IMG/VR virus record: IMGVR_UViG_3300000563_000001
Span: 1 to 35,767 of that record
From: a virus
Length of the DNA: 35,767 nt
Strand: one strand, 5' to 3'
Shown here: positions 3,036 to 35,767 of the stretch, one piece after another
Position numbering within the stretch: position 1 is the stretch's first letter
Layout: each line of letters begins with the position of its first letter
Position numbers and translations under genes: made by a program
The notes under the pieces: generated by a model
Seen by the model: only the letters and a program-made list of their open reading frames with translations
What the model was told of the DNA's origin: nothing
Databases searched by the model: none

Positions 3036-3096
3036 TGTGATTGCAAATTATAAACTTGCATTTATTTATTTAAAGAAAAAATAAAAATTAATTAAT

Positions 3097-3232
3097 ATAT
3101 TTATATAATAAGAGATATTTTAAATTTTTTCACTCTAAAATCATGTCTTAAGGTGCTATTTAAAGCTATTCTATCGTTAAAATCCGTAAGCGTTTTTGTT
3201 CTAAAAACTGCTTATGTTTTACAAGTTGTCAG
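3097..3232 (-). repeat. Intergenic cassette copy A (core), reverse orientation
   Basis: The reverse complement reads CTGACAACTTGTAAAACATAAGCAG...GCTTTAAATAGCA...CTCTTATTATATAAATAT. It shares a 16-mer and a 13-mer with copy D and a 16-mer with copies B and C. Confidence 0.85.
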
Positions 3233-3284
3233 ATTATAAATTTTGCAAGATTTTAATAATTAGAAATCATTTTTCCTAAAAGTA

Positions 3285-3313
3285 TTGCAATTTATAGCGT
3301 GTTGACGTATGAT
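3285..3313 (+). promoter_or_regulatory. Candidate promoter of the primase-helicase gene (TTGCAA-17-TATGAT), with a GTGTTGACG box in the spacer
   Basis: Hexamers at 3285-3290 and 3308-3313. Alternatively GTGTTGACG (3299-3307) is itself a -35 of the early-promoter family, but no -10 follows at 17 bp. Confidence 0.4.
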
Positions 3314-5754: not shown

Positions 5755-5766
5755 TCTTAAAAAGTG

Positions 5767-7969: not shown

Positions 7970-8608
7970 ATGAGGTTTAAATTCACAACTCGAGAAATAG
8001 AAAACGCACTAAAAGAATTAATAATTATTATAGATAGCAGAGAACAGAAAAGCGAAAATTATAAAAAAGAGTGGAATAGAGATAATATAAAAACTTATAG
8101 TAAAGAGGATTTTTTATATCTAAATGAAGTCAAGAAAATGCCTAAAAAAGATTTATACGAACCTTGTTTACCAAGTGGTGACTATTCTGCAATGCTACCA
8201 AGTGGGACTCTTAGGGGAATAGATAGGGCATTATGGTTCGACAAAAAGACTATAATAGAGAAAAAAGGAAGTATAGACGAATTAGCAGGGAATATAAGCA
8301 AAAAAGATTTAATAAGGCTTAGAAATGAATTTGCAAGGCTTAAAGCTAATGGCACAAGACATAGGATATTTATAGAAGACGGATTGTATTTTAAACACCT
8401 GTATGAAGGAACTGGAAACCAAAAAAATGGGTGGAAGTCACAAGAAAGTCTCGGCTGTGCTATAAGTAGAGAATTAAGCAGATGGGGGACAGAACTTATA
8501 CCAATTCCACCGGAATATATGGCTAGAGAAATATATCGTAAGATAAAATATGATGTTAAGACTATCTTAGAAGAAGAATTTGAAATAAGTGAAATAGAAA
8601 ACTTTTAA
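7970..8608 (+). CDS. ERCC4/Mus81-type (XPF-family) nuclease-like protein (212 aa)
   Basis: IIIDSRE, SGDYS and IEKKGSIDELAGNI resemble the ERCC4 motif set (DxRE, GDY, ERKxxxDL). It sits in the recombination module. This is a call by eye only. Confidence 0.5.
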   Translation: MRFKFTTREIENALKELIIIIDSREQKSENYKKEWNRDNIKTYSKEDFLYLNEVKKMPKKDLYEPCLPSGDYSAMLPSGTLRGIDRALWFDKKTIIEKKGSIDELAGNISKKDLIRLRNEFARLKANGTRHRIFIEDGLYFKHLYEGTGNQKNGWKSQESLGCAISRELSRWGTELIPIPPEYMAREIYRKIKYDVKTILEEEFEISEIENF

Positions 8609-8616
8609 AATAAGTG

Positions 8617-8646
8617 TTGACAATGTATTGTATTATATGTTAGAAT
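8617..8646 (+). promoter_or_regulatory. Early promoter gtgTTGACA-18-TAGAAT
   Basis: The AAGTGTTGACAATGTATT box is identical to 5764-5781. Confidence 0.6.
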
Positions 8647-8677
8647 TAAGACAAGTTAAAGAAAGGGGAATAATAAA

Positions 8678-8866
8678 ATGAAAATGATAGAAGGTTACAA
8701 TTTTTATGAAGTTTTGGAAATTATATCAGATTATGAAATTTATAGAGGATATGAATATACTATAACAAAAAGGTCTATACCTAACGGAATAATAATTAAA
8801 AGCATAGAAAGTGATTCCATAAATTGGGATAATTTACAGAAAGAATTATTTATAAAAGTAGAATAA
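8678..8866 (+). CDS. Hypothetical protein (62 aa)
   Basis: ORF track; AAAGGGGA SD. Confidence 0.6.
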   Translation: MKMIEGYNFYEVLEIISDYEIYRGYEYTITKRSIPNGIIIKSIESDSINWDNLQKELFIKVE

Positions 8867-10703: not shown

Positions 10704-11363
10704 ATGTTAAGGAAAAAGTTAATAAAAATAATATCAAAAATATTAATAATATCTAGTTTAATAGTAACTCTTTTAATGCCTATAAATTCATGTTTGGCAC
10801 GTTCTAATAAAAGCATACTAATATATCATAGTCACACTAGTGAAGCTTACACAGATGATTATAACGTAGTTAAAGCAGGCGAAGACTTAAGCAACAAATT
10901 AAGAAAAAAAGGGTATATAGTACATCATGTAATAGATAAATTTGACAATGATTATAATAATAGTTATTATTGTTCTAATAAAATGCTAAAAGGGAAAGAT
11001 TTAAATAGTTATGATTTAATAATTGATTATCACAGAGATGCTATAAATGATAAAAAAATAGTAACTAAAGATAAAAACAATAATGAAGTAGCTAAAACTA
11101 TGTTTGTTATAACTAAAGAGCAGGAAAATTTTAATAAACAAAATAATATTGTAAAGAATTTAGAAAAGGAATTAATTACAGTTTCTGAATCTGATATGGT
11201 TCGAAAAACATGGTATTACAACAAAGGTATAAATTACTATAGTCAAAATTTATCAGATAATATAATACTTATAGAAAATGGATTTAATACTAATACAGAA
11301 CTAGAAATAAAAAGAGCAAATACTTATCTAAGTTACTCTATTGATAAAGTTTTAAAAAAATAA
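10704..11363 (+). CDS. spoIIP: SpoIIP-family cell-wall amidase homologue (219 aa) with an N-terminal signal/TM segment
   Basis: ILIYHSHTSEAY, DYHRDA, AKTMFVITK and YSQNLSDNIILIENG reproduce the conserved SpoIIP blocks (iYHTH..E.Y; DiHRDa; Akimfv; NQ.l....lLiE.G). Hydrophobic N-terminus IISKILIISSLIVTLLMPI. Confidence 0.8.
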   Translation: MLRKKLIKIISKILIISSLIVTLLMPINSCLARSNKSILIYHSHTSEAYTDDYNVVKAGEDLSNKLRKKGYIVHHVIDKFDNDYNNSYYCSNKMLKGKDLNSYDLIIDYHRDAINDKKIVTKDKNNNEVAKTMFVITKEQENFNKQNNIVKNLEKELITVSESDMVRKTWYYNKGINYYSQNLSDNIILIENGFNTNTELEIKRANTYLSYSIDKVLKK

Positions 11364-11464: not shown

Positions 11465-11698
11465 ATGAAAAAAGAGTTTATAAAAAATGTATGCGATATA
11501 GATGTAGACGGTTTTAGAGGTATAAATACTTATACTATTAAAGCAATGTACAACGTGGAAAAAGAAGAGGGGTATTGGGGAATAGAATTTAAACTAATTG
11601 ACAAGTTTACTATGACATGGTCTGAAATAGAAAGAGATGGAGGAATAGAACAAATTAATAGAGATTTGGAAGAATGTTATAATATTAAAAAAGATTAA
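11465..11698 (+). CDS. Hypothetical protein (77 aa)
   Basis: ORF track; AAAGGGGA SD. Confidence 0.6.
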   Translation: MKKEFIKNVCDIDVDGFRGINTYTIKAMYNVEKEEGYWGIEFKLIDKFTMTWSEIERDGGIEQINRDLEECYNIKKD

Positions 11699-11702
11699 AA
11701 AA

Positions 11703-11726
11703 AGGAGGGTACGCCCTCCTAGGAGG
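11703..11726 (+). promoter_or_regulatory. GC hairpin abutting the SD (on the minus strand it reads as hairpin plus T6)
   Basis: aGGAGGG-tacg-CCCTCCt followed directly by AGGAGG, with the ATG at 11734. It is preceded by A6 on the + strand. Confidence 0.6.
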
Positions 11727-11733
11727 TATAAAC

Positions 11734-11856
11734 ATGGTAATAAATTATAAAGATTTGTATTTAAAATATATAAGTATAATTTACAAATGTGATTCATATA
11801 AAATTACAAATAGATTAAATAAATTATCAGAATGTAATTTGAGAGAATTAGAATAA
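11734..11856 (+). CDS. Small ORF (40 aa)
   Basis: ATG 7 nt after AGGAGG. Below the ORF-track cutoff. Confidence 0.45.
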   Translation: MVINYKDLYLKYISIIYKCDSYKITNRLNKLSECNLRELE

Positions 11857-11861
11857 AAGTG

Positions 11862-11890
11862 TTGACATTGTGTAATATGTGTATTAATTT
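11862..11890 (+). promoter_or_regulatory. Early-family promoter gtgTTGACA-17-TAATTT (weak -10)
   Basis: AAAGTGTTGACATTGTGTA box read directly. The -10 is poor. Confidence 0.45.
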
Positions 11891-11929
11891 TAGTATATAA
11901 GATAAATAAATTTAAAGGAGAGTAATAAA

Positions 11930-12019
11930 ATGCAAATTTGTTTAAACAATGTAGGTAGAGAATTAAAAAAATATTCGTTTCAAAAAGGTAAAGAAAAAAA
12001 TAAAAAAATGGAGGAATAA
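11930..12019 (+). CDS. Small basic ORF (29 aa)
   Basis: ATG 8 nt after AAAGGAGAG. Below the ORF-track cutoff. Confidence 0.4.
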   Translation: MQICLNNVGRELKKYSFQKGKEKNKKMEE

Positions 12020-12026
12020 AAATCGT

Positions 12027-12236
12027 ATGAGAGAAATTTTTAAGAATATGAATTATGATGAATTTAAAGAATGGTGTAATGACAGAGCTTGTGATGGGCA
12101 ATGGAATGTTGACGAGGCAATGTTGTATATTCCAATAATGAGAGCTATTGACGAGATAAAAATAAAAGGATTATTTAAGAAAAAAGCAACTAAAGAAGCT
12201 AGAGAATTGGCTTGGAGAGATATATTTGAAAAATAA
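12027..12236 (+). CDS. Hypothetical protein (69 aa)
   Basis: ORF track; GGAGG at 12010-12014. Confidence 0.6.
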   Translation: MREIFKNMNYDEFKEWCNDRACDGQWNVDEAMLYIPIMRAIDEIKIKGLFKKKATKEARELAWRDIFEK

Positions 12237-12279
12237 AAAATAGGAATATTGCAAATTAGTAGAGGAGGAATAGAAAAAA

Positions 12280-12411
12280 ATGAAAATTAATGAATTATTT
12301 AAAGAAGAATATATAGGTAAAAAGGTAATAGATAATTGTGGGTCAATTTGGATTGTTGGAAAATCAAATTTAGAACTTGCAGAAAATGCAAAAGACAAAT
12401 ATATAATTTAA
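12280..12411 (+). CDS. Small ORF (43 aa)
   Basis: ATG 9 nt after GAGGAGGAA. It is the last ORF before the terminator at 12425. Confidence 0.45.
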   Translation: MKINELFKEEYIGKKVIDNCGSIWIVGKSNLELAENAKDKYII

Positions 12412-12424
12412 TAATAATTAATTT

Positions 12425-12449
12425 AGGCTAGGGATTAACCTAGCCTTTT
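12425..12449 (+). terminator. Rho-independent terminator closing the early region
   Basis: aggctagg/cctagcct 8-bp stem, 6-nt loop, then TTTT. Confidence 0.75.
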
Positions 12450-12464
12450 CTTAAACTCAATAAA

Positions 12465-12478
12465 AGAACATATGTTCT
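12465..12478. promoter_or_regulatory. LexA (Cheo) box-like perfect palindrome AGAACATATGTTCT
   Basis: Matches the Gram-positive SOS-box core GAAC-N4-GTTC (idealised CGAACATATGTTCG) at 12 of 14 positions. It is intergenic. Confidence 0.45.
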
Positions 12479-12537
12479 AATATTCGTAATGGTACGAACA
12501 ATAAAGCTAAAAAAATTAAAAATATTCGTCTTTTTAT

Positions 12538-12696
12538 GTGTTGACACGAAAGCACTTTTTTTCTAAAAAACGCTTTTTTATTTTAACGATAAAATCCAGT
12601 CGCCAAGCGGGTTGAGGTCACTTTTTACCTTCAAATAATTCAAAATAGTTCTTATTATATAAATATCTTTTATTCTTTTTTATTTATTTAGAAAGG
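12538..12696 (+). repeat. Intergenic cassette copy B, forward orientation
   Basis: gtgTTGACA...GCACTTTTTTTCTAAAAAACGC...TTTTAACGATA...CTTATTATATAAATATCTTTT...TTATTTATTTAGAAAGG. It shares a 21-mer and a 17-mer with copy C and has an 11-nt deletion relative to the other copies. Confidence 0.85.
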
Positions 12697-12754
12697 ATAT
12701 TATTATTTGTATATTCGTGTTTCGTATCTAATAATTATCACCACCCTAAGCAAA

Positions 12755-12783
12755 TTGAATTTTGTGACCACAAATGGTATAAT
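12755..12783 (+). promoter_or_regulatory. Box promoter of the packaging/head operon: TTGAAT-tt[TGTGACCACA]aatgg-TATAAT
   Basis: Exact 17-bp spacer; extended -10 TGGTATAAT. The spacer 10-mer is shared with the promoters at 18261-18289 (-) and 33553-33581 (+). Confidence 0.8.
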
Positions 12784-12814: not shown

Positions 12815-13222
12815 ATGACAGTACCAGTTAAGGGAGGTCGACCAAAGGCATTTAATAGTGTCGAGGAGCTTGAAAAGAAAATTGAAGAGTTTTATGACTA
12901 TTGTGAATTAAAAGAAGAGACTTTGACTTTTGAAAGATTATCAACGTTTCTAAATGTAGATAGAAAAACCATTTATAATTATGAAGATAAAGACGAGTAT
13001 TTCCACACTTTTAAAAAAGTTAGAGAGAGAATATTAGCTGATATAATGAGTAAAGGTTTAGGGAATAAGATAAATCCAACCTTTGGAATATTCTGTTTGA
13101 AGAATTATGGATATACAGATAAGCAAGAGATTGAAAGCACTAATACAAATACTAATAAGAATATTAATGTTGACCATCTAAGTACAGAACAAATCAAGGA
13201 ACTATTAAAAGATGAAAGTTAA
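12815..13222 (+). CDS. terS: Terminase small subunit
   Basis: The N-terminal GGRPKAF...EELEKKIEEFYDYC motif is typical of HTH-type TerS. It lies directly upstream of and overlaps terL. The ATG at 12815 is 9 nt after AAAGGAG, whereas the ORF-track TTG at 12806 abuts the SD. Confidence 0.8.
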   Translation: MTVPVKGGRPKAFNSVEELEKKIEEFYDYCELKEETLTFERLSTFLNVDRKTIYNYEDKDEYFHTFKKVRERILADIMSKGLGNKINPTFGIFCLKNYGYTDKQEIESTNTNTNKNINVDHLSTEQIKELLKDES

Positions 13223-16019: not shown

Positions 16020-16928
16020 TTGGATTTTGCACATCAAGAAACGGACAAAATGTTGTTTAATTTGGAAAAAGAACTCAATAAAATCTATAAGCAATCATAC
16101 TTTGAATGTAAATCAAAACTAAATAAAAATCAGAAACTAATTGATGAACTTAGTAAAACTGATGACTTAATAAAGCGTAACAATTTACTTAGGAAAAAGA
16201 ATAGACTTGACACTCTATTAAAACAGATGATGTTAAATATAAATTCAACTAATGAAATAGCTGTAAAGATGATTAACAATGATATGATAGATGTATATTG
16301 GTTTAATTATGCTTACTTAGGTTATACTATAGAAAAGACTTTAAATGCTAGAATAGGATTCCAAGTATTTAATCAGAATGTAATTAAAAAGCTATTACAG
16401 GACGAGTTAAACCCTTTTACTTTGCTTACTATAGATAAATTAAAAGATAAAGGGAATATTTATTCTCAACTTAAAAGAGAGCTAAGTGTTGGACTATTGC
16501 AAGGAGAGAGTATAACTAATTTAGCTAAGAGAATGGAAAAGGTTCTTAATATAAGTCATAACTCTAGTATAACTATGGCTAGAACAGAAACAACTAGAAT
16601 AGAAAGTTCGGCTAGGATGGATAGTTTTGAATTTGCAGAAACTAAAGGCATAAAAGTAAAAAAAGAATGGATTAGTACAATTGATAAGCGTACTAGGAAA
16701 AGCCATAGAAGACTAATGGGAGAAATTAGAGAGATTGACGAAAAGTTTTCTAATGGTCTTATGTATCCCGGAGACCCAAATGGGAAAGCTGAGGAAGTTA
16801 TTAGGTGCCGTTGCACTATGGTATCTAAATTAGTTGACTTAGAGGAAACTAGAAAAGAATTAGAACTTGATGAAAGAATAAAGAAAATGAGTTTTGAAGA
16901 GTGGGGTGTTGAATATGCTAAAGATTAA
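16020..16928 (+). CDS. Head morphogenesis protein (SPP1 gp7 / Mu F family), TTG start
   Basis: MARTETTRIESSARMDSF, IDKRTRKSHRRLMGE and VIRCRCTM are hallmark MuF-family motifs. It follows the portal gene. Confidence 0.85.
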   Translation: MDFAHQETDKMLFNLEKELNKIYKQSYFECKSKLNKNQKLIDELSKTDDLIKRNNLLRKKNRLDTLLKQMMLNINSTNEIAVKMINNDMIDVYWFNYAYLGYTIEKTLNARIGFQVFNQNVIKKLLQDELNPFTLLTIDKLKDKGNIYSQLKRELSVGLLQGESITNLAKRMEKVLNISHNSSITMARTETTRIESSARMDSFEFAETKGIKVKKEWISTIDKRTRKSHRRLMGEIREIDEKFSNGLMYPGDPNGKAEEVIRCRCTMVSKLVDLEETRKELELDERIKKMSFEEWGVEYAKD

Positions 16929-17311: not shown

Positions 17312-17340
17312 AAGAGGTATTAACTACCTCTTATATTTTT
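17312..17340. terminator. Bidirectional rho-independent terminator between convergent genes
   Basis: aagaggta/tacctctt 8-bp stem flanked by an A-run upstream and ATATTTTTT downstream. The stop codon of the minus-strand ORF lies in the stem. Confidence 0.8.
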
Positions 17341-18260: not shown

Positions 18261-18289
18261 ATTCTATCAGATTGTGGTCACATTGTCAA
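18261..18289 (-). promoter_or_regulatory. Box promoter of the antisense operon: TTGACA-a[TGTGACCACA]atctga-TAGAAT
   Basis: Reverse complement of 18261-18289 with an exact 17-bp spacer. The box is at 18273-18282. Confidence 0.75.
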
Positions 18290-18371
18290 TAGCCTGACTG
18301 TAGTAAGTTAACTTAGGAAGTTATTAATTGAAGATGAAAAGATTGAAATTGCATATATCATAATTGCATTA

Positions 18372-18547
18372 CCTTTCTAAATAAATAATTTATAAAAAAA
18401 TAAAAAGATATTTATATAATAAGGAACTTTTTTAATAATATTGAGCCTCGACTGGCTACAAACCCAGTAAATAAGCCAATCCTTTAGCAGAGTGACGTAA
18501 GCACTTTTCCAAAAAAAACTGCTCCAAAATTGTGACGTTGTCAACAC
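18372..18547 (-). repeat. Intergenic cassette copy C, reverse orientation
   Basis: The reverse complement reads gtgTTGACAACGTCAC...GGAGCAGTTTTTTTTGGAAAAGTGCTTACGTCAC...CCTTATTATATAAATATCTTTTT...TTATTTATTTAGAAAGG. Confidence 0.85.
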
Positions 18548-18616
18548 GCTATTTTTAGTGCTTTTTGCAAGTTTTTAATTTACTTCTTGCATATTTATAC
18601 GTACATTGACAGCAAA

Positions 18617-18645
18617 TTGACAAAAAAAAATTCGTGTTATATAAT
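18617..18645 (+). promoter_or_regulatory. Promoter of the scaffold/capsid operon TTGACA-17-TATAAT
   Basis: Consensus hexamers. The spacer contains ATTCGTGTT, also found at 12713-12721. Confidence 0.8.
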
Positions 18646-20081: not shown

Positions 20082-20121
20082 TAAGCTAATTTCATATTAA
20101 ATATATAAATAACCTCAAATG

Positions 20122-20150
20122 TCGGTAGTTTGAATACTACCGATTTTTTT
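20122..20150 (+). terminator. Rho-independent terminator after the capsid gene
   Basis: tcggtagt/actaccga 8-bp stem, loop TTGAAT, then T7. Confidence 0.85.
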
Positions 20151-20158
20151 GGTATAAT
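20130..20158 (+). promoter_or_regulatory. Promoter embedded in the terminator: TTGAAT (hairpin loop)-17-TATAAT with TGG extension
   Basis: The -35 is exactly the 6-nt loop. The spacer is the 3' arm plus the T-run plus GG (17 bp). The -10 is at 20153-20158. Confidence 0.6.
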
Positions 20159-20177
20159 TATAAAAGGAGGATATAAA

Positions 20178-22737: not shown

Positions 22738-25290
22738 ATGAATTTATTTAACCTTAAAGCCGTTTTAGGAATAGACGATAAGGAGTTTAAAGCAGGTATA
22801 AAAGGGGCAAAAAAAGGCATAGAAGGAATAGGACAGACAAAAGGATTCCAAATTTTAGACGGATTTGTTAAAAAAGGAGCAATTGGGGTAGGTATTTTAA
22901 AAACAGCAGTAACCAAAATGGGTATAGAATATAATTCTAGTCTTCAAAGTTCTACGGTAGCATGGAAAACTCTACTAGGGACACAAGAAAATGCTCAAAA
23001 TATGATGAAAGATATTGAACAATATGCAAGTAAAACACCTTTCACAAAAATGGGAGTTGATGCAATGGCTAAACAACTCCATAATGCAGATTTTGAAGGT
23101 CAAGCACTTTTTGACCAATTGACAAAATTTGGAGATATTGGAGGAGCTTTCGGAATACAAGAAGATTCACTTAAAGAAATGGTAAGACAATATAGCCAAG
23201 TTCAACAAGCGACGGTCGCATATACAGAAGATTTAAATATATTACAAGATAGAGGTGTACCAATTTATAAGGCATTAGCAGAAGTTACAGGTAAAAGCGT
23301 TGCAGAAGTTAAAAAGATGGCTAGTGAAGGTAAAATATCAGCTGATATATATAATCAAGCTATTGATAGCATAGCAAGTAAAACTACTGGAGCTATGGCT
23401 AATCAATCCAAAACATTTGACGGTATGATGTCTACTTTAAAAGATAATCTTGGTATGATAGCTGGTAAAATAATTGAACCATTATTTAACAAATTGAATG
23501 AAGTTATGCCTAAAATAATTGAATTAGTTGACGGTATAAACGAGAAAATGACAGAAGGTCAAAGTTTTATGAGTGCTTTAAAAGAAAGTATACAAGAAAC
23601 TTTCGGAACAGGTGCTTTAGTGGCTTTCATAGCTATAAAGGACGCTATAATTGGCATAGTAGCTGTATGGGGTACTTTGAAGGCAATAATGACAGTAAAT
23701 GAAATAGTTGACAATATAGGTAAATTTAAAACCAATATAGGATTATTATCAGATGGTGTTGGCAAAATGGTGGGTTCTATGGGGTTAGCGGAAAAAGCAA
23801 CAAAATTATTAAGCCTAGCATTTATAGAAACTCCTATTGGCTGGGTTGTATTAGCAATAGGGGCATTAGTAGCTGGTTTTATATATCTATGGAATAACTG
23901 CGAAGGATTTAGAGAATTTTGGATTAATCTGTGGGATACTATTAAAACTAAAGCGATTGACGCTTGGAATGCTATAAGCAGTTTTTTTACTGAAACTATA
24001 CCCGAAGTATTTGGGAAAATAATTGATTTCTTTAAAAATAATTGGAAAGAAATATTATTGTTTTTAGTTAATCCGTTCGCTGGAGCTTTTGCACTTTTAT
24101 ATAATAACTGTGATGGATTTAAGGAGTTTATAGACGGATTTGTGGAAGATATAGGGAACTTTTTTAAAGAAGGCTGGAACGCTATTGTAACGTTTTTTAC
24201 TGAAAGTATACCTAATTTTGTTAATGATGTTTTGCAATGGCTTGGAGAATTACCAGGAAAAATTTGGGAAGGAATAACAACATTTTTCAATGAAGCACCA
24301 AGGAAAATAGGCGAGGCAATAGGAACTATATTAGGATATATATATATATTAGCTACAACGTGGTGGGAAGGATTTGTTACTTTTTGGACTGAAATGATAC
24401 CTAATTTAATTACATCTATAGGGGAATGGTTTTCAGAATTACCTGCCAAAATTGGTGAATGGTTGGCACAAGTTTGGGAAGATTTTAAAACTTGGGTTAC
24501 TAATTTGTGGACAACAGCAAGTGAGGGAATGGCAAATTTAATAAATGGTATTGGTGAATGGTTTTCTCAATTACCTACTAAAATTTCTGCTTGGCTATTA
24601 TATACATGGGATAAATTCAAGAGTTGGTGTTCTGATATGTGGAATACAGCGAACGAAAAAATAAATACTTTAGTTGATGGAGTAGGGGATTGGTTTTCTG
24701 AAATGCCTGGTAAAGTTGCTAAATGGTTACTAGATACTTGGAATAAACTTGTTAAATGGGGAAGTGATATGGTTACTAGTGCCAAAAATTCGGCAAAAGA
24801 TGTTTTCCACGCAATAGTTGATACAATTTCTGATATACCAGGTAAAATGCTAGATATTGGGAAAAATATAGTAAAAGGTATATGGAATGGTATAACAGGA
24901 ATGGCAGGTTGGTTAAAAGAAAAAATAGGTGGATTTGCTAGTGGAGTTGTGAAAGGATTTAAAGGGGCTTTAGGAATACACTCACCTTCTAGGGTAATGA
25001 AAAAAGAGGTAGGTCAATACACAGCTCAAGGGTTTGGAGTAGGTTTTATAGACGAAATGGATAACGTTAATAAAGATATTCAAGAAAGTATGAAAGATAC
25101 TGTAAATAGTGCTAGAGTACCTATCCCTTACTATAAGCAAGATGATTTTAAAGATAGTTTAAAAACTATGTTTAGTATAGATTTTAAAATGGATATAGAC
25201 GGACAGGAATTTGTAAGAAAGACAGTGGCACCACATCAAGGAGAATTGGAAGACTATAATAGAATGACTACAACTGCTTTTTCTTATTAA
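22738..25290 (+). CDS. Tape measure protein (850 aa)
   Basis: Longest tail ORF. It has a central hydrophobic segment and about six tandem W-rich repeats of about 40 aa (GEWFSxLPxKIxxWL...W..). The C-terminus carries GIHSPSRVM. Confidence 0.9.
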   Translation: MNLFNLKAVLGIDDKEFKAGIKGAKKGIEGIGQTKGFQILDGFVKKGAIGVGILKTAVTKMGIEYNSSLQSSTVAWKTLLGTQENAQNMMKDIEQYASKTPFTKMGVDAMAKQLHNADFEGQALFDQLTKFGDIGGAFGIQEDSLKEMVRQYSQVQQATVAYTEDLNILQDRGVPIYKALAEVTGKSVAEVKKMASEGKISADIYNQAIDSIASKTTGAMANQSKTFDGMMSTLKDNLGMIAGKIIEPLFNKLNEVMPKIIELVDGINEKMTEGQSFMSALKESIQETFGTGALVAFIAIKDAIIGIVAVWGTLKAIMTVNEIVDNIGKFKTNIGLLSDGVGKMVGSMGLAEKATKLLSLAFIETPIGWVVLAIGALVAGFIYLWNNCEGFREFWINLWDTIKTKAIDAWNAISSFFTETIPEVFGKIIDFFKNNWKEILLFLVNPFAGAFALLYNNCDGFKEFIDGFVEDIGNFFKEGWNAIVTFFTESIPNFVNDVLQWLGELPGKIWEGITTFFNEAPRKIGEAIGTILGYIYILATTWWEGFVTFWTEMIPNLITSIGEWFSELPAKIGEWLAQVWEDFKTWVTNLWTTASEGMANLINGIGEWFSQLPTKISAWLLYTWDKFKSWCSDMWNTANEKINTLVDGVGDWFSEMPGKVAKWLLDTWNKLVKWGSDMVTSAKNSAKDVFHAIVDTISDIPGKMLDIGKNIVKGIWNGITGMAGWLKEKIGGFASGVVKGFKGALGIHSPSRVMKKEVGQYTAQGFGVGFIDEMDNVNKDIQESMKDTVNSARVPIPYYKQDDFKDSLKTMFSIDFKMDIDGQEFVRKTVAPHQGELEDYNRMTTTAFSY

Positions 25291-25293
25291 TAT

Positions 25294-25318
25294 AGGAGGT
25301 TTTACACCTCCTTTTTTT
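25294..25318 (+). terminator. Rho-independent terminator after the tape measure gene
   Basis: aggaggt/acctcct 7-bp stem, loop TTTAC, then T7. Confidence 0.8.
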
Positions 25319-25329
25319 GATGGTATAAT
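25301..25329 (+). promoter_or_regulatory. Promoter embedded in the terminator: TTTACA (loop)-17-TATAAT with TGG extension
   Basis: The -35 spans the loop plus the first base of the 3' arm. The spacer is exactly 17 bp. TGGTATAATTATA is shared with 20150-20162. Confidence 0.55.
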
Positions 25330-25348
25330 TATATAAGGAGGTGATTTT

Positions 25349-32919: not shown

Positions 32920-32985
32920 ATGGGAAAAGCTACACAAACAAAAACTACTAAAAAGAAAAAAGTAAGAATTAGGAAGAAAAAATAA
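32920..32985 (+). CDS. Possible 21-codon Lys-rich upstream ORF (MGKATQTKTTKKKKVRIRKKK) overlapping the next start (TAATG)
   Basis: ATG 7 nt after AGGGGTGA. The stop overlaps the ATG at 32985 by 1 nt. Confidence 0.3.
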   Translation: MGKATQTKTTKKKKVRIRKKK

Positions 32986-33248
32986 TGTTAAGTAGAAGTC
33001 AGGTGAAGAGGGTGTTAGATTGCCCCTCTAAGCCACTTTTAATTCTAGCTTTGGAATTGGTCAATCTTAAAGAAAAAGAACGTGTAGCGATAGAATATGT
33101 GGACATTAAAGGCTATACAGAAGAACAGACAGCAGAGATTTTAAATATAAGTAGAAGTAGTATCACTAAATATAGGAAAAATGCTTATAATAAAATGGGA
33201 AAAGTGTGGGAAAAAGAAAAATCGATAAAAACAATTTTGGAGGGTTAG
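32985..33248 (+). CDS. Sigma-70 region-4-like HTH protein (87 aa; a late-regulator candidate)
   Basis: LKEKERVAIEYVDIKGYTEEQTAEILNISRSSITKYRKNAYNKM is a typical sigma r4 / YlxM-like HTH. No region 2 is present. Confidence 0.6.
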   Translation: MLSRSQVKRVLDCPSKPLLILALELVNLKEKERVAIEYVDIKGYTEEQTAEILNISRSSITKYRKNAYNKMGKVWEKEKSIKTILEG

Positions 33249-33268
33249 CAAATAACCTTCTTTTTTTA
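33241..33268 (+). terminator. Rho-independent terminator closing the late operon
   Basis: agggtta/taacctt stem (one G-U), 5-nt loop, then TTCTTTTTTTATT. Confidence 0.6.
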
Positions 33269-33281
33269 TTCCTTATAACTG

Positions 33282-33327
33282 AATAAATATACAAAGTAAA
33301 CGCTTAAATAGCAAATAAATATACAAA
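33282..33327 (+). repeat. Two direct copies of AATAAATATACAAA, 32 bp apart
   Basis: Read directly at 33282-33295 and 33314-33327, between the terminator and cassette copy D. Confidence 0.7.
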
Positions 33328-33335
33328 AAATCCAT

Positions 33336-33471
33336 CTGACAACTTGTAAAATCGGAGCAGTTTTCAGAGAAAAAGTGCTTTCGCAAATTTACTAAAGAAT
33401 TGCTTTAAATAGCATGTTTGAATATGATTTGATGCCAATAAAATTATAAATGTACTCTTATATATAAATAT
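33336..33471 (+). repeat. Intergenic cassette copy D (core), forward orientation
   Basis: CTGACAACTTGTAAAATCGGAGCAGTTTTCAGAGAAAAAGTGCTTTCGC...GCTTTAAATAGCA...CTCTTATATATAAATAT. Confidence 0.85.
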
Positions 33472-33552
33472 TATTTTATTTTTTTATTTTTTTAATAATG
33501 TATAAATTTAATGTATATCACTTTTCTAAATTAATCTCCTTCGGCTAGGTAG

Positions 33553-33581
33553 TTGACAATGTGACCACATTGGTATATAAT
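33553..33581 (+). promoter_or_regulatory. Box promoter TTGACA-a[TGTGACCACA]ttggta-TATAAT
   Basis: Consensus hexamers with an exact 17-bp spacer. The box is at 33560-33569. Confidence 0.8.
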
Positions 33582-33613: not shown

Positions 33614-33781
33614 ATGGAAAACAACAATAATAATGATTTAACTAAAGATGATTTTATTCACATGAGAATTAATAAAGAACTTAAAGCAAGAGCTATAAAA
33701 GTTGCAAAAGCTAATTACACAGATTTAACACAAATGGTTACTGATTGTTTAGTTAAAATAGTAAAAGAAAATAATGTATAG
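33614..33781 (+). CDS. Ribbon-helix-helix (Arc/CopG-like) DNA-binding protein (55 aa)
   Basis: The pattern HMRINKELKARAIKVAKANYTDLTQMVTDCLVKIV fits beta strand, helix, N.T turn, helix. GGGGGA SD. It is the first gene after the box promoter and is below the ORF-track cutoff. Confidence 0.55.
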   Translation: MENNNNNDLTKDDFIHMRINKELKARAIKVAKANYTDLTQMVTDCLVKIVKENNV

Positions 33782-33998: not shown

Positions 33999-34160
33999 AT
34001 GGATTGTAAACAAGAATTAGTAAATCAAATAAAGAAAACTTTTAAAGGTATAGATAATCCAGTAGCATATTCAAATTATTTAACTAATTTATGTACTAGA
34101 GAATATTTAAAATTAAGTTCAATGAATGAAATTATAGCATGTAAGGAGATAGAACAATAA
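33999..34160 (+). CDS. Hypothetical small protein (53 aa)
   Basis: ATG 8 nt after AAGGAG. Below the ORF-track cutoff. Confidence 0.5.
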   Translation: MDCKQELVNQIKKTFKGIDNPVAYSNYLTNLCTREYLKLSSMNEIIACKEIEQ

Positions 34161-34261
34161 TGAAGATGACTAAAGAAGAGTTTATGGCTCAATATTATAA
34201 AGACCAAGAAAAGAAGAAAAATGATAAAATAAAGGCTGAAAAAGAAATTGGCTGTAGTTGA
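34160..34261 (+). CDS. Hypothetical small protein (33 aa)
   Basis: TAATG overlap with the previous ORF. AAGGAG lies 12 nt upstream. Confidence 0.4.
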   Translation: MKMTKEEFMAQYYKDQEKKKNDKIKAEKEIGCS

Positions 34262-34286
34262 TTTATGTTAATTAAAGTGATATAAT
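34258..34286 (+). promoter_or_regulatory. Promoter TTGATT-17-TATAAT with a TG extension
   Basis: Hexamers at 34258-34263 and 34281-34286. gTGaTATAAT is an extended -10. Confidence 0.65.
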
Positions 34287-34292
34287 ATACAC

Positions 34293-34375
34293 ATACATTA
34301 AGATTTTTTTATTAAAAAATTATTCTCCAAAATTTTTATTTTTCTTATGAAGAGGTTGACCCCTCTTCTTTTTTT
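34293..34375 (+). ncRNA. Candidate sRNA of about 80 nt, or a terminator-containing leader
   Basis: It is bounded by the promoter at 34258-34286 and the terminator at 34349-34375. No SD-preceded ORF lies inside. It contains a UUAUUCUCC tract. Confidence 0.3.
34349..34375 (+). terminator. Rho-independent terminator
   Basis: gaagagg/cctcttc stem, 6-nt loop ttgacc, then T7. Confidence 0.8.
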
Positions 34376-34483
34376 ATGCTCAAAATTACTAATAAATTAC
34401 TCAAATTTCGCTCTAAATTAATACAGACTTTTATTTTGTAAGTGATAAAATTATAGTAAAGAGAAAAATAAGGAGGATATAAA

Positions 34484-34927
34484 ATGGCTTTAGGATATAA
34501 CAATTATGGCGGGTATAATGCTTATACAGCACAAGCAAATCCATACGGAAGTCCAAATATTCAGCAACAAATGCAACAATTACAACAAATGCAACAGCCT
34601 CAACAACAGTTTCAACCTCAACAACAAAGCGTAAATATTTTACAAGGTCAACAAGTTGCAGATTTAGAAACAGTTAGGGGATTTAATATTCCATTAGATG
34701 GAACAATTACTTATTTTCCAGCTACTACAGGAAATATTATATATACAAAACAATTGCAACTTGACGGAACGGTAGCATTAAGAACTTATAAATTAACAGA
34801 AAATAAAGAAGAAACCAAAAAAGATAATATAGATTTAGATGAATATGTAAAAAAAGACGAATTTAATAAAGTAAAAGGAGTTTTAGATTCGTTATTGGAA
34901 AACCTAGGAGGTGCAAAAAATGAATAA
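34484..34927 (+). CDS. Protein with a Q-rich (prion-like composition) N-terminus and a small beta-rich C-terminal domain (147 aa)
   Basis: ORF track; AAGGAGGA SD. The N-terminus contains NIQQQMQQLQQMQQPQQQFQPQQQ. Confidence 0.7.
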   Translation: MALGYNNYGGYNAYTAQANPYGSPNIQQQMQQLQQMQQPQQQFQPQQQSVNILQGQQVADLETVRGFNIPLDGTITYFPATTGNIIYTKQLQLDGTVALRTYKLTENKEETKKDNIDLDEYVKKDEFNKVKGVLDSLLENLGGAKNE

Positions 34928-35201: not shown

Positions 35202-35767
35202 ATGGCTATGGCTGATTTACAAGGAATAATTCCAACAATGGACGTAAAAGGTGGCAATGATGGTTTCGGTGGCGGTAATGGCTCTTGGGTACTTTTATTA
35301 TTCTTTTTACTAGCGATGGGTGGTAATGGTTTTGGAGGAAATGGAAACGCAAGAGGTGAAATTTCAAACGACTTTTTATACACAAACTTAAGTCAGGGAC
35401 TAAACACTGATTTCTTACAAATTTCTAATCAAAACATGCAAACATCAAGAGATGTATGTTCAGGATTCGCAGGAGTAAACGCAAGTATTGCAGAAAATAG
35501 ATTCGCAGGTCAACAATGTTGTTGTGAAACTAATAGAAATATTGATTCGGTAAAATTTGAAAACTTAAATAATACTAGGGACATAATAGCAAACGCAACT
35601 GCTAACACTCAAGCTATACTTGACAAAATGTGTGCTACAGAAGTACAAAACTTAAGAGATGAATTAAATGAAACTAGAAGACGAGCAGACATATGTTCTC
35701 AAAATGATATGTTAATATCTAACTTAAGACCATTCCCAGTACCTGCATATCCTAGTTGTTCACCATA
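35202..35767 (+). CDS. 5' part of the wrap-around ORF (total about 223 aa): Gly/Asn-rich flanks around one TM helix, then a Cys-rich (9 Cys) C-terminal domain
   Basis: The ATG at 35202 follows AGGAGGAGG. There is no stop before the contig end, so the ORF track missed it. The sequence reads GGNDGFGGGNGSWVLLLFFLLAMGGNGFGGNGN...QQCCCE... and continues at 66..108. Confidence 0.8.
   Translation, partial: MAMADLQGIIPTMDVKGGNDGFGGGNGSWVLLLFFLLAMGGNGFGGNGNARGEISNDFLYTNLSQGLNTDFLQISNQNMQTSRDVCSGFAGVNASIAENRFAGQQCCCETNRNIDSVKFENLNNTRDIIANATANTQAILDKMCATEVQNLRDELNETRRRADICSQNDMLISNLRPFPVPAYPSCSP
35703..35767. repeat. Terminal overlap, identical to 1-65
   Basis: Read directly. Confidence 0.95.

Follow-up and report, generated by a model that had tools for sequence, protein, structure and literature searches.

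The 35,767-nt stretch of viral DNA analysed here (IMG/VR record IMGVR_UViG_3300000563_000001, positions 1 to 35,767; hereafter the window) carries four diverged, paralogous copies of a non-coding cassette, which we term A to D and which form a real repeat family with a unit of about 170–200 bp. Each of the five promoters predicted to open a transcription unit has a cassette 28–62 bp upstream of it, in either orientation, and this position points to control of the adjacent promoters. Our tentative explanation, which we rate a little below an even chance, is that the cassette acts in cis, as a DNA landing pad for a putative regulator upstream of the boundary promoters.

A family of four non-coding cassettes

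All six pairwise Smith–Waterman scores between the four copies exceeded each of 300 dinucleotide shuffles, with z-scores against the shuffles ranging from 5.4 (A–C) to 23.7 (A–D), so the four-copy repeat proposed in a preliminary description of this DNA, made from the sequence by eye, stands. When an nhmmer profile of the four copies was run against the genome, it returned exactly four full-length matches (E-values 5e-37 to 2e-44); the other matches at E < 1 were the palindromes described below matching themselves on the opposite strand, and the next best match had an E-value of 1.9. An alignment of the four intervals spans about 200 nt, with a mean column identity of 67%. Some 140 columns are free of gaps and remain so when orthologues are added, although the paralogues are only 67–73% identical.

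By profile envelope, cassette A lies at 3062–3257 on the minus strand (E = 5e-37; palindrome 3188–3212, AT block CTTATTATATAAATAT at 3097–3112, T-rich tail to about 3062) and cassette B at 12506–12716 on the plus strand (E = 7e-39; palindrome 12551–12575, AT block 12651–12666, T-rich tail to about 12700). Cassette C, at 18351–18568 on the minus strand (E = 2e-44; palindrome 18499–18523, AT block 18408–18423), fills the gap between two divergent promoters, and cassette D lies at 33311–33510 on the plus strand (E = 5e-41; palindrome 33356–33380, AT block CTCTTATATATAAATAT at 33455–33471). These envelopes agree in location with the preliminary description, but homology extends beyond the ends given there. 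The shared blocks that it quoted are all present, with CTGACAACTTGTAAAA and GCTTTAAATAGCA common to A and D, and CTTATTATATAAATATCTTTT and TTATTTATTTAGAAAGG common to B and C. Its statement that the copies occupy the four largest intergenic gaps holds if the small open reading frames (ORFs) of the Logan gene calls are counted, but not with ORFs of at least 50 aa, where the gap containing copy A (310 nt) ranks sixth, behind 11698–12027 and 34160–34484.

In a common orientation, each cassette consists of five parts: a 5′ motif, a 25-bp palindrome, a middle segment of about 70 nt with moderate conservation, an AT block and a T-rich tail. The palindrome measures 25 nt in all four copies and is a two-fold symmetric arrangement of A/T tracts, AGCAsTTTT-N7-AAAAs(n)GCT, in which the outer AGC(A/G) tetranucleotides are set about two helical turns apart and enclose inner T4/A4 tracts. 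Scanning the whole genome with the pattern AGCAsTTTT-N7-AAAnnGCT and at most two mismatches gave nine matches, eight of them in cassettes, where 0.38 were expected by chance; the palindrome itself is confined to the cassettes. The pattern matches on both strands, and perfectly on both in C and D.

The AT block contains the exact 11-mer TATATAAATAT, whose four occurrences in the genome all fall inside cassettes. From the first base of the palindrome to the end of this 11-mer is exactly 116 nt in all four copies. Duplex DNA across the AT block and T-tract is among the least stable in the genome; when 50-nt windows were ranked by AT content, the AT block and tail of D came first, those of A second and those of C sixth. 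At the other end of the cassette, the 5′ motif includes a short palindrome of the TGT/ACA type, which reads CTGACAACTTGT in copies A and D, GTGTTGACAACGTCACA in C and GTGTTGACAC in B. The 5′ ends of cassettes B (12538) and C (18539, minus strand) are made up of the 9-mer GTGTTGACA.

Downstream of cassettes B, C and D lie three predicted promoters that carry the box TGTGACCACA in their spacers, the only three occurrences of this sequence in the genome. These are the sigma-A-type promoter of the small-terminase operon (12755–12783, plus strand; box 12763–12772), 39 bp from cassette B; the promoter of a three-gene minus-strand operon (18261–18289, minus strand; box 18273–18282), 62 bp from cassette C; and the consensus promoter of an operon that begins with a gene for a ribbon-helix-helix (RHH)-like protein (33553–33581, plus strand; box 33560–33569), 43 bp from cassette D. 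A distance of 88–131 bp to these promoters had been reported, but a recount from the cassette ends used in that report gives 59–90 bp. Two further promoters face the 5′ edges of cassettes. The promoter of the helicase operon (3285–3313, plus strand; TTGCAA-17-TATGAT, with GTGTTGACG in the spacer) has its −35 element 28 bp from the edge of cassette A, which had been called an orphan and is not one, and the consensus promoter of the scaffold/capsid operon (18617–18645, plus strand) lies 49 bp from the edge of cassette C. Intrinsic terminators are predicted upstream of B, where one ends the replication operon (12425–12446, plus strand), and upstream of D, where another ends the late/lysis operon (33239–33261, plus strand).

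Conservation among relatives

Relatives were recovered by pattern scans and protein-guided look-ups and represent at least five lineages, all metagenomic. A JGI sediment phage provided orthologues of C (L038, L048, L058, L064, L065 and L067), B (L066) and D (L160 and L161); ENA ERZ28616442 provided A and B (L072) and D (L076); Logan SRR29457770 provided A and B (L080), with copy A complete; and further orthologues of D were found in L074, L075 and L162. All orthologous cassettes occupy the syntenic position, and they are nearly indel-free with respect to the window. Their identity to it is 92–93% in L080, 85% (L072) and 92% (L066) for B, 87% for C (L038) and 77–89% for D.

Four-fold degenerate sites in the flanking helicase, portal and terminase genes are 65–71% identical in L080 and 48–50% identical in L072, and the cassettes evolve like first and second codon positions. 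That cassette identity exceeds the identity of four-fold sites in the flanking genes indicates that the cassette is under purifying selection. Within the palindrome, the constraint acts on sequence and not on pairing: in 13 sequences representing six lineages, the arms are unchanged and the loop is variable. The paralogues also predate the divergence of the phages, since paralogues share 67–73% identity and orthologues 77–93%.

The distribution of the cassette is narrow. It is absent from 33 loci with a related large terminase (TerL), from IMG/VR and JGI metagenomes outside the clade, and from 185,579 GTDB species genomes (one genome per species), and the B region has no match in 50,697 GenBank phages; the cassette is lineage-specific. 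In L077, which encodes a 60%-identity relative of the sigma-70 region-4-like protein found next to D, the D position holds only an 85-nt terminator–promoter gap, with neither cassette nor TGTG box.

Several smaller features were noted around individual copies. In orthologues of B, the centre of the GTGTTGACA near-palindrome is flipped to GTCAACAC. Short, copy-specific direct repeats follow the T-rich tail: ATGCAAT occurs twice after C (18348–18369, minus strand) and AATGTATA twice after D (33497–33517, plus strand). Both C repeats are altered alike in L038 (ATGCAA to ATGAAA), and the D pair is inverted in L074 and L075. Cassette B alone is flanked by a TTCGTA-N4-TACGAA palindrome and further ATTCGT repeats (12483–12498, 12524–12529 and 12713–12726). 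These are kept in L072 and L080 with a changed loop, and could possibly represent a pac/small-terminase site or the site of a B-specific regulator. The slot directly upstream of cassette B (12340–12490) is hypervariable among relatives, with about 440 extra nt and a 169-aa ORF in L080, about 1150 extra nt in L066 and a non-homologous replacement in L072; the small-terminase gene downstream of B is also replaced in L080.

The window represents a phage genome of about 35.7 kb that was assembled as a circle. Bases 1–65 are an exact repeat of 35703–35767, and this 65-nt terminal repeat is a circular assembly overlap, giving a genome of about 35,702 bp; the identical sequence is present in Logan run SRR490128 as a 35,704-bp contig. 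The genome has a G+C content of 27% and encodes small and large terminases, an SPP1-type portal, a scaffold protein, an amidase/holin lysis pair, ERF, SSB, Gp157, an 802-aa ResIII/DEAD helicase and a SpoIIP-domain protein, a gene content that suggests a siphophage of an AT-rich spore-former. The SpoIIP-domain protein (sporulation cell-wall hydrolase family) is encoded at 10704–11363, and the close relative L080 has a gene (812–1546) with a collagen-repeat/BclA C-terminal domain, as in exosporium-type proteins; these two genes point to a spore-forming host. There are no close cultured relatives: the best cultured large-terminase match among the 50,697 GenBank phages is 61% identical, and the helicase has no match in that set. 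A tape-measure-like ORF of 850 aa contains an internal direct repeat of 86 nt (24185–24270 and 24374–24459; 71% identical).

Near-consensus promoters with an extended −35 element (GTGTTGACA-N17-TATAAT) occur in the replication module only, at 5764, 6720, 8614, 11381 and 11859 (plus strand), and also at 3299. A hairpin at 17312–17332 with T-runs flanking it on both strands is predicted to terminate transcription in both directions, from the packaging operon and from the three-gene minus-strand operon that converges with it.

A putative landing pad and alternative explanations

Invariant, symmetric arms around a free loop would be expected of a site selected by a dimeric DNA-binding protein and not of one selected as an RNA helix, and the exact spacing to a second invariant, deformable block suggests a defined nucleoprotein geometry. 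Among the functions raised in the preliminary description, a multi-site protein landing pad is the best fit to the symmetric palindrome, the fixed spacing, the selection and the position 28–62 bp upstream of promoters. Under such a scheme, the phage lineage would place a regulatory landing pad next to the first promoter of each transcription unit. A dimeric DNA-binding protein, either phage-encoded or a host factor, would recognize the palindrome and, with the easily bent or melted AT block at a fixed distance, would assemble into a nucleoprotein complex that adjusts the activity or the timing of the neighbouring sigma-A promoters. Because the palindrome is symmetric, a cassette could serve promoters on both of its sides, which would account for copies A and C.

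Candidate binders were sought by scanning 41 ORFs against profile libraries (Pfam, PHROGs or NCBIfam), many ORFs being without annotation. A DNA-binding domain above a curated cut-off was found in one product only, an 87-aa protein with a sigma-70 region-4/GerE-like helix-turn-helix, encoded directly upstream of D (32985–33248, plus strand), and it is the only recognizable phage-encoded candidate for binding the cassette. The box in the promoter spacers is probably a palindromic operator of the form TGTG-NN-CACA. Its TGTG and CACA arms are kept in all but one relative (L080, with TATG at B), and its central dinucleotide differs in nearly every relative (AC, GT, AA, TT, TC and GA). The natural candidate for this box is the 55-aa RHH-like protein (33614–33781, plus strand), whose gene is the first behind the D promoter and is kept in all relatives, and which could be an autoregulator. 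The complex on the cassette may cooperate with these spacer operators. All of these protein-to-site assignments we infer.

Several observations weigh against a landing pad. The scans yielded only candidate binders of the cassette, and among the host operator consensus sequences compared by eye (CodY, CcpA cre, Spo0A box, PerR/Fur, parS and SinR) none fits all four copies, because the CodY-like match in A and D falls in the non-conserved loop. The internal promoters, which belong to the GTGTTGACA class in the replication operon and to two terminator–promoter composites in the late operon, have no cassette, and the distance from palindrome to promoter varies from 85 to 222 bp. Conservation in relatives reaches beyond the cassette to the entire boundary intergenic regions, promoters included. 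Copy A of L072 has lost about 120 nt comprising the 5′ motif, the palindrome and the middle segment, with the AT block, tail and helicase promoter retained; the lost part is therefore dispensable, at least in L072. A 10.5-bp periodicity of conserved columns, suspected by eye, was not significant (best P about 0.1–0.2), and the promoter and terminator calls rest on consensus scans.

The most durable alternative, albeit an unlikely one, is that the cassette contains a promoter of its own. The AT block would then serve as the −10 element from which each cassette starts either an additional upstream transcript or a small or antisense RNA, and the palindrome would be an operator or activator site acting at a distance. 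A perfect TATAAT is found on the reverse strand of A, B and C and their orthologues, a T4-late-like TATAAATA (TATAAA/T) on the forward strand of all four copies, and a weak TTCAAA-like hexamer 17 nt upstream of TATTAT in A–C. Promoter-carrying intergenic repeats are also known, from halovirus HF2 (PMC8707807) and, as promoter-early stem-loops (PeSLs), from T4-type phages (PMC4122927). However, neither direction shows a conserved −35 hexamer or TG extension at canonical spacing. The TATTAT/TATAAT hexamers are disrupted in the D group, and the block itself is altered in L076 and L160. Promoter-like matches are no commoner in this 27% GC genome than in shuffles (141 versus 132 and 114 versus 125). 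A promoter in copy A would fire into the 3′ end of the convergent gene, and the more than 116 nt of additional conserved sequence would be superfluous. In a related and more speculative reading, a T4-late-like, −35-less TATAAATA promoter would be driven by a remote palindromic enhancer.

We consider it improbable that the cassettes are recombination linkers, whose main role at module boundaries would be to promote recombination, either swapping modules between phages or rearranging the genome internally, as has been proposed for PeSLs. Part of this proposal, made in the preliminary description, is borne out. Paralogues have traded segments of about 25–40 nt after the divergence of the relatives, such that the D copy of L076 equals B at 23 of 24 positions and that of L074 equals A at 21 of 24, and B is flanked by replaced segments in three relatives, as an island with non-homologous sequence on both flanks in L080 and with different inserts in L066 and L072. 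The genome also encodes an ERF-family recombinase. Against this, the C and D regions are collinear with all relatives, and no inversion or deletion isomer was found among related contigs. Module exchange needs homology between phages, not four paralogues of 67–73% identity within one genome, and selection keeps specific motifs and exact spacing instead of overall similarity.

A more speculative idea, to which we give little weight, is that the cassettes are anchors that a palindrome-binding protein pairs or loops, dividing the chromosome of about 35.7 kb into four insulated transcriptional and topological domains. If true, this would be a boundary-element system on the scale of a virus, with the AT block as a melting or bending partner at a distance of 11 helical turns.

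A structured cis-acting or small RNA, such as the put-like antitermination element suggested earlier, is largely refuted. All copies do have one hairpin, and in the reverse-strand alignment the stem column 124–141 has a G-U pair in five of nine copies where the forward strand has an A-C mismatch. Single-copy minimum free energies were no better than those of shuffles on either strand (z from −1.15 to +0.48), and RNAalifold, run on five and nine sequences and on both strands, recovered only this A/T hairpin, with nine-sequence consensus energies of −3.3 and −4.0 kcal/mol. Across the 13 sequences, seven of the ten stem pairs are constant, and the score for covariation, 0.082, lies below that of every slid control (0.124–0.159). 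The outer-pair variation once described as pairing-compatible reduces to a single outermost position, which is unpaired in three of the 13. Rfam gave no match at the gathering score, and none within the cassettes even at E-values up to 10. The put element of phage HK022 folds into two conserved stem-loops and is transcribed directly downstream of the promoter whose RNA polymerase it modifies; according to the consensus scans, B and D come after terminators and before the next promoter, and C sits between divergent promoters.

A miniature inverted-repeat transposable element, a host-derived repeat spread in the phage genome or a mobile promoter-carrying cassette, which four dispersed intergenic copies in both orientations might bring to mind, is the least probable reading and likewise largely refuted, given that terminal inverted repeats and target-site or flanking duplications are within the shuffle range in all four copies, that relatives carry the cassettes at the same four sites, that the paralogues are older than the phage divergence and that the database searches found none outside the clade.

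Two further candidates were rejected. A small protein gene is contradicted by stops in every frame in at least two paralogue groups, with no ORF common to the copies; an open frame exists in C only, and the C orthologue differs from it by many non-synonymous changes. As for a replication origin, GC skew changes monotonically and does not inflect at any of the cassettes, no iterons are common to the copies, and four origins in one genome are implausible.

Non-coding DNA is scarce in phages and usually takes the form of short promoters, operators and terminators. The non-coding cassette is long and composed of several parts at exact internal spacing, and selection keeps it in four copies at the transcription-unit boundaries of a clade of uncultured phages whose genes mostly lack annotation. 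Should it be a landing pad, it would offer a direct handle on operon coordination in such phages and four targets for pull-down or footprinting, although the finding alone overturns nothing known.

Comparison with known systems

The closest known kinds of element are dispersed phage regulatory repeats, and the cassette belongs to none of the families compared here. PeSLs combine a near-consensus sigma-70 promoter with a G+C-rich terminator stem-loop in a compact element and occur in many copies, mostly in the hyperplastic regions of T4-type phages (PMC2839356, PMC4122927). The cassettes resemble them as short non-coding intergenic repeats, putatively regulatory, that lie in part at sites of insertion or replacement between relatives and exchange sequence by recombination; such breakpoints between close relatives were found at B and near A, and not at C or D. 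Unlike PeSLs, the cassettes contain no clear canonical promoter, having −10-like hexamers on both strands with no conserved −35 element or TG extension. Their hairpin is A/T-rich and not terminator-like, with two G-C pairs and an internal mismatch, and it was not called by the terminator scan; a T-run follows it only in the B group and some D orthologues. The cassettes are also about 170–200 bp long with fixed internal spacing, and number only four, one per operon boundary. Two PeSL-like composites, 72% identical to each other, were seen inside the late operon (20118–20170 and 25289–25341), in which a G+C-containing terminator hairpin runs directly into an extended −10 promoter (TGGTATAAT) and a ribosome-binding site.

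The intergenic repeats of halovirus HF2 are archaeal promoters of 29–58 bp (PMC8707807). They share with the cassettes an AT-rich composition and a position upstream of ORFs, but the cassettes are three to six times longer, and the feature most strictly conserved in them is a symmetric palindrome that lies about 100 bp from the AT block.

Two other metagenomic phages carry non-coding cassette pairs of their own. L078, whose helicase is 44% identical, has one at 496–967 and 11810–12269 (80% identical over 425 nt), and L032, whose large terminase is 56% identical, has one at 8570–8704 and 16609–16743 (80% identical over 139 nt). Both pairs occupy large gaps upstream of operon promoters and by eye resemble our cassette, with a 5′ TxACAAnTTGT-like motif, an A/T hairpin, a TATATA block and short direct repeats. 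Local alignment to the cassette was within or barely above shuffles (z up to 3.2), and we treat them as analogous; they gave no RNA fold signal and no Rfam match. They hint that long upstream control cassettes may be recurrent in Firmicute siphophages. Elsewhere in L032 there is a sub-threshold match to a type-P1 twister ribozyme (1665–1734; E = 3e-7, scoring 46 bits where the gathering score is 67.2) and a tRNA (13146–13216).

The stoperators of Cluster A mycobacteriophages are asymmetric, orientation-dependent sites of 13–14 bp, present in 20–30 copies and bound by the immunity repressor. The cassettes similarly repeat one conserved intergenic motif far more often than chance allows (the 25-bp palindrome in four cassettes, against 0.38 matches expected), and would likewise coordinate several transcription units through a bound protein, established for stoperators and putative here. 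They differ in having as their site a 25-bp palindrome that forms part of a long conserved cassette. The dispersed centromeres of the plasmid-prophage N15 are palindromic sites bound by SopB that require the sopAB partition operon. N15 likewise has four such sites, dispersed along its genome close to promoters, but a ParA/ParB (SopA/SopB)-like gene was recognized neither among the 41 ORFs scanned here, many of them unannotated, nor in the Pfam marks of the Logan gene calls.

In phi29, the p4/p6 upstream sites and the curved A-tract DNA of Bacillus phage promoters support a nucleoprotein complex that switches sigma-A promoters. Like them, the cassettes place inverted repeats with A/T tracts, together with AT-rich DNA that bends easily, upstream of sigma-A promoters. 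The two show no homology in sequence or protein, and phi29 has one divergent promoter region in place of four paralogous cassettes. By analogy with these systems, the cassette would act most like a dispersed operator joined to upstream bendable DNA.

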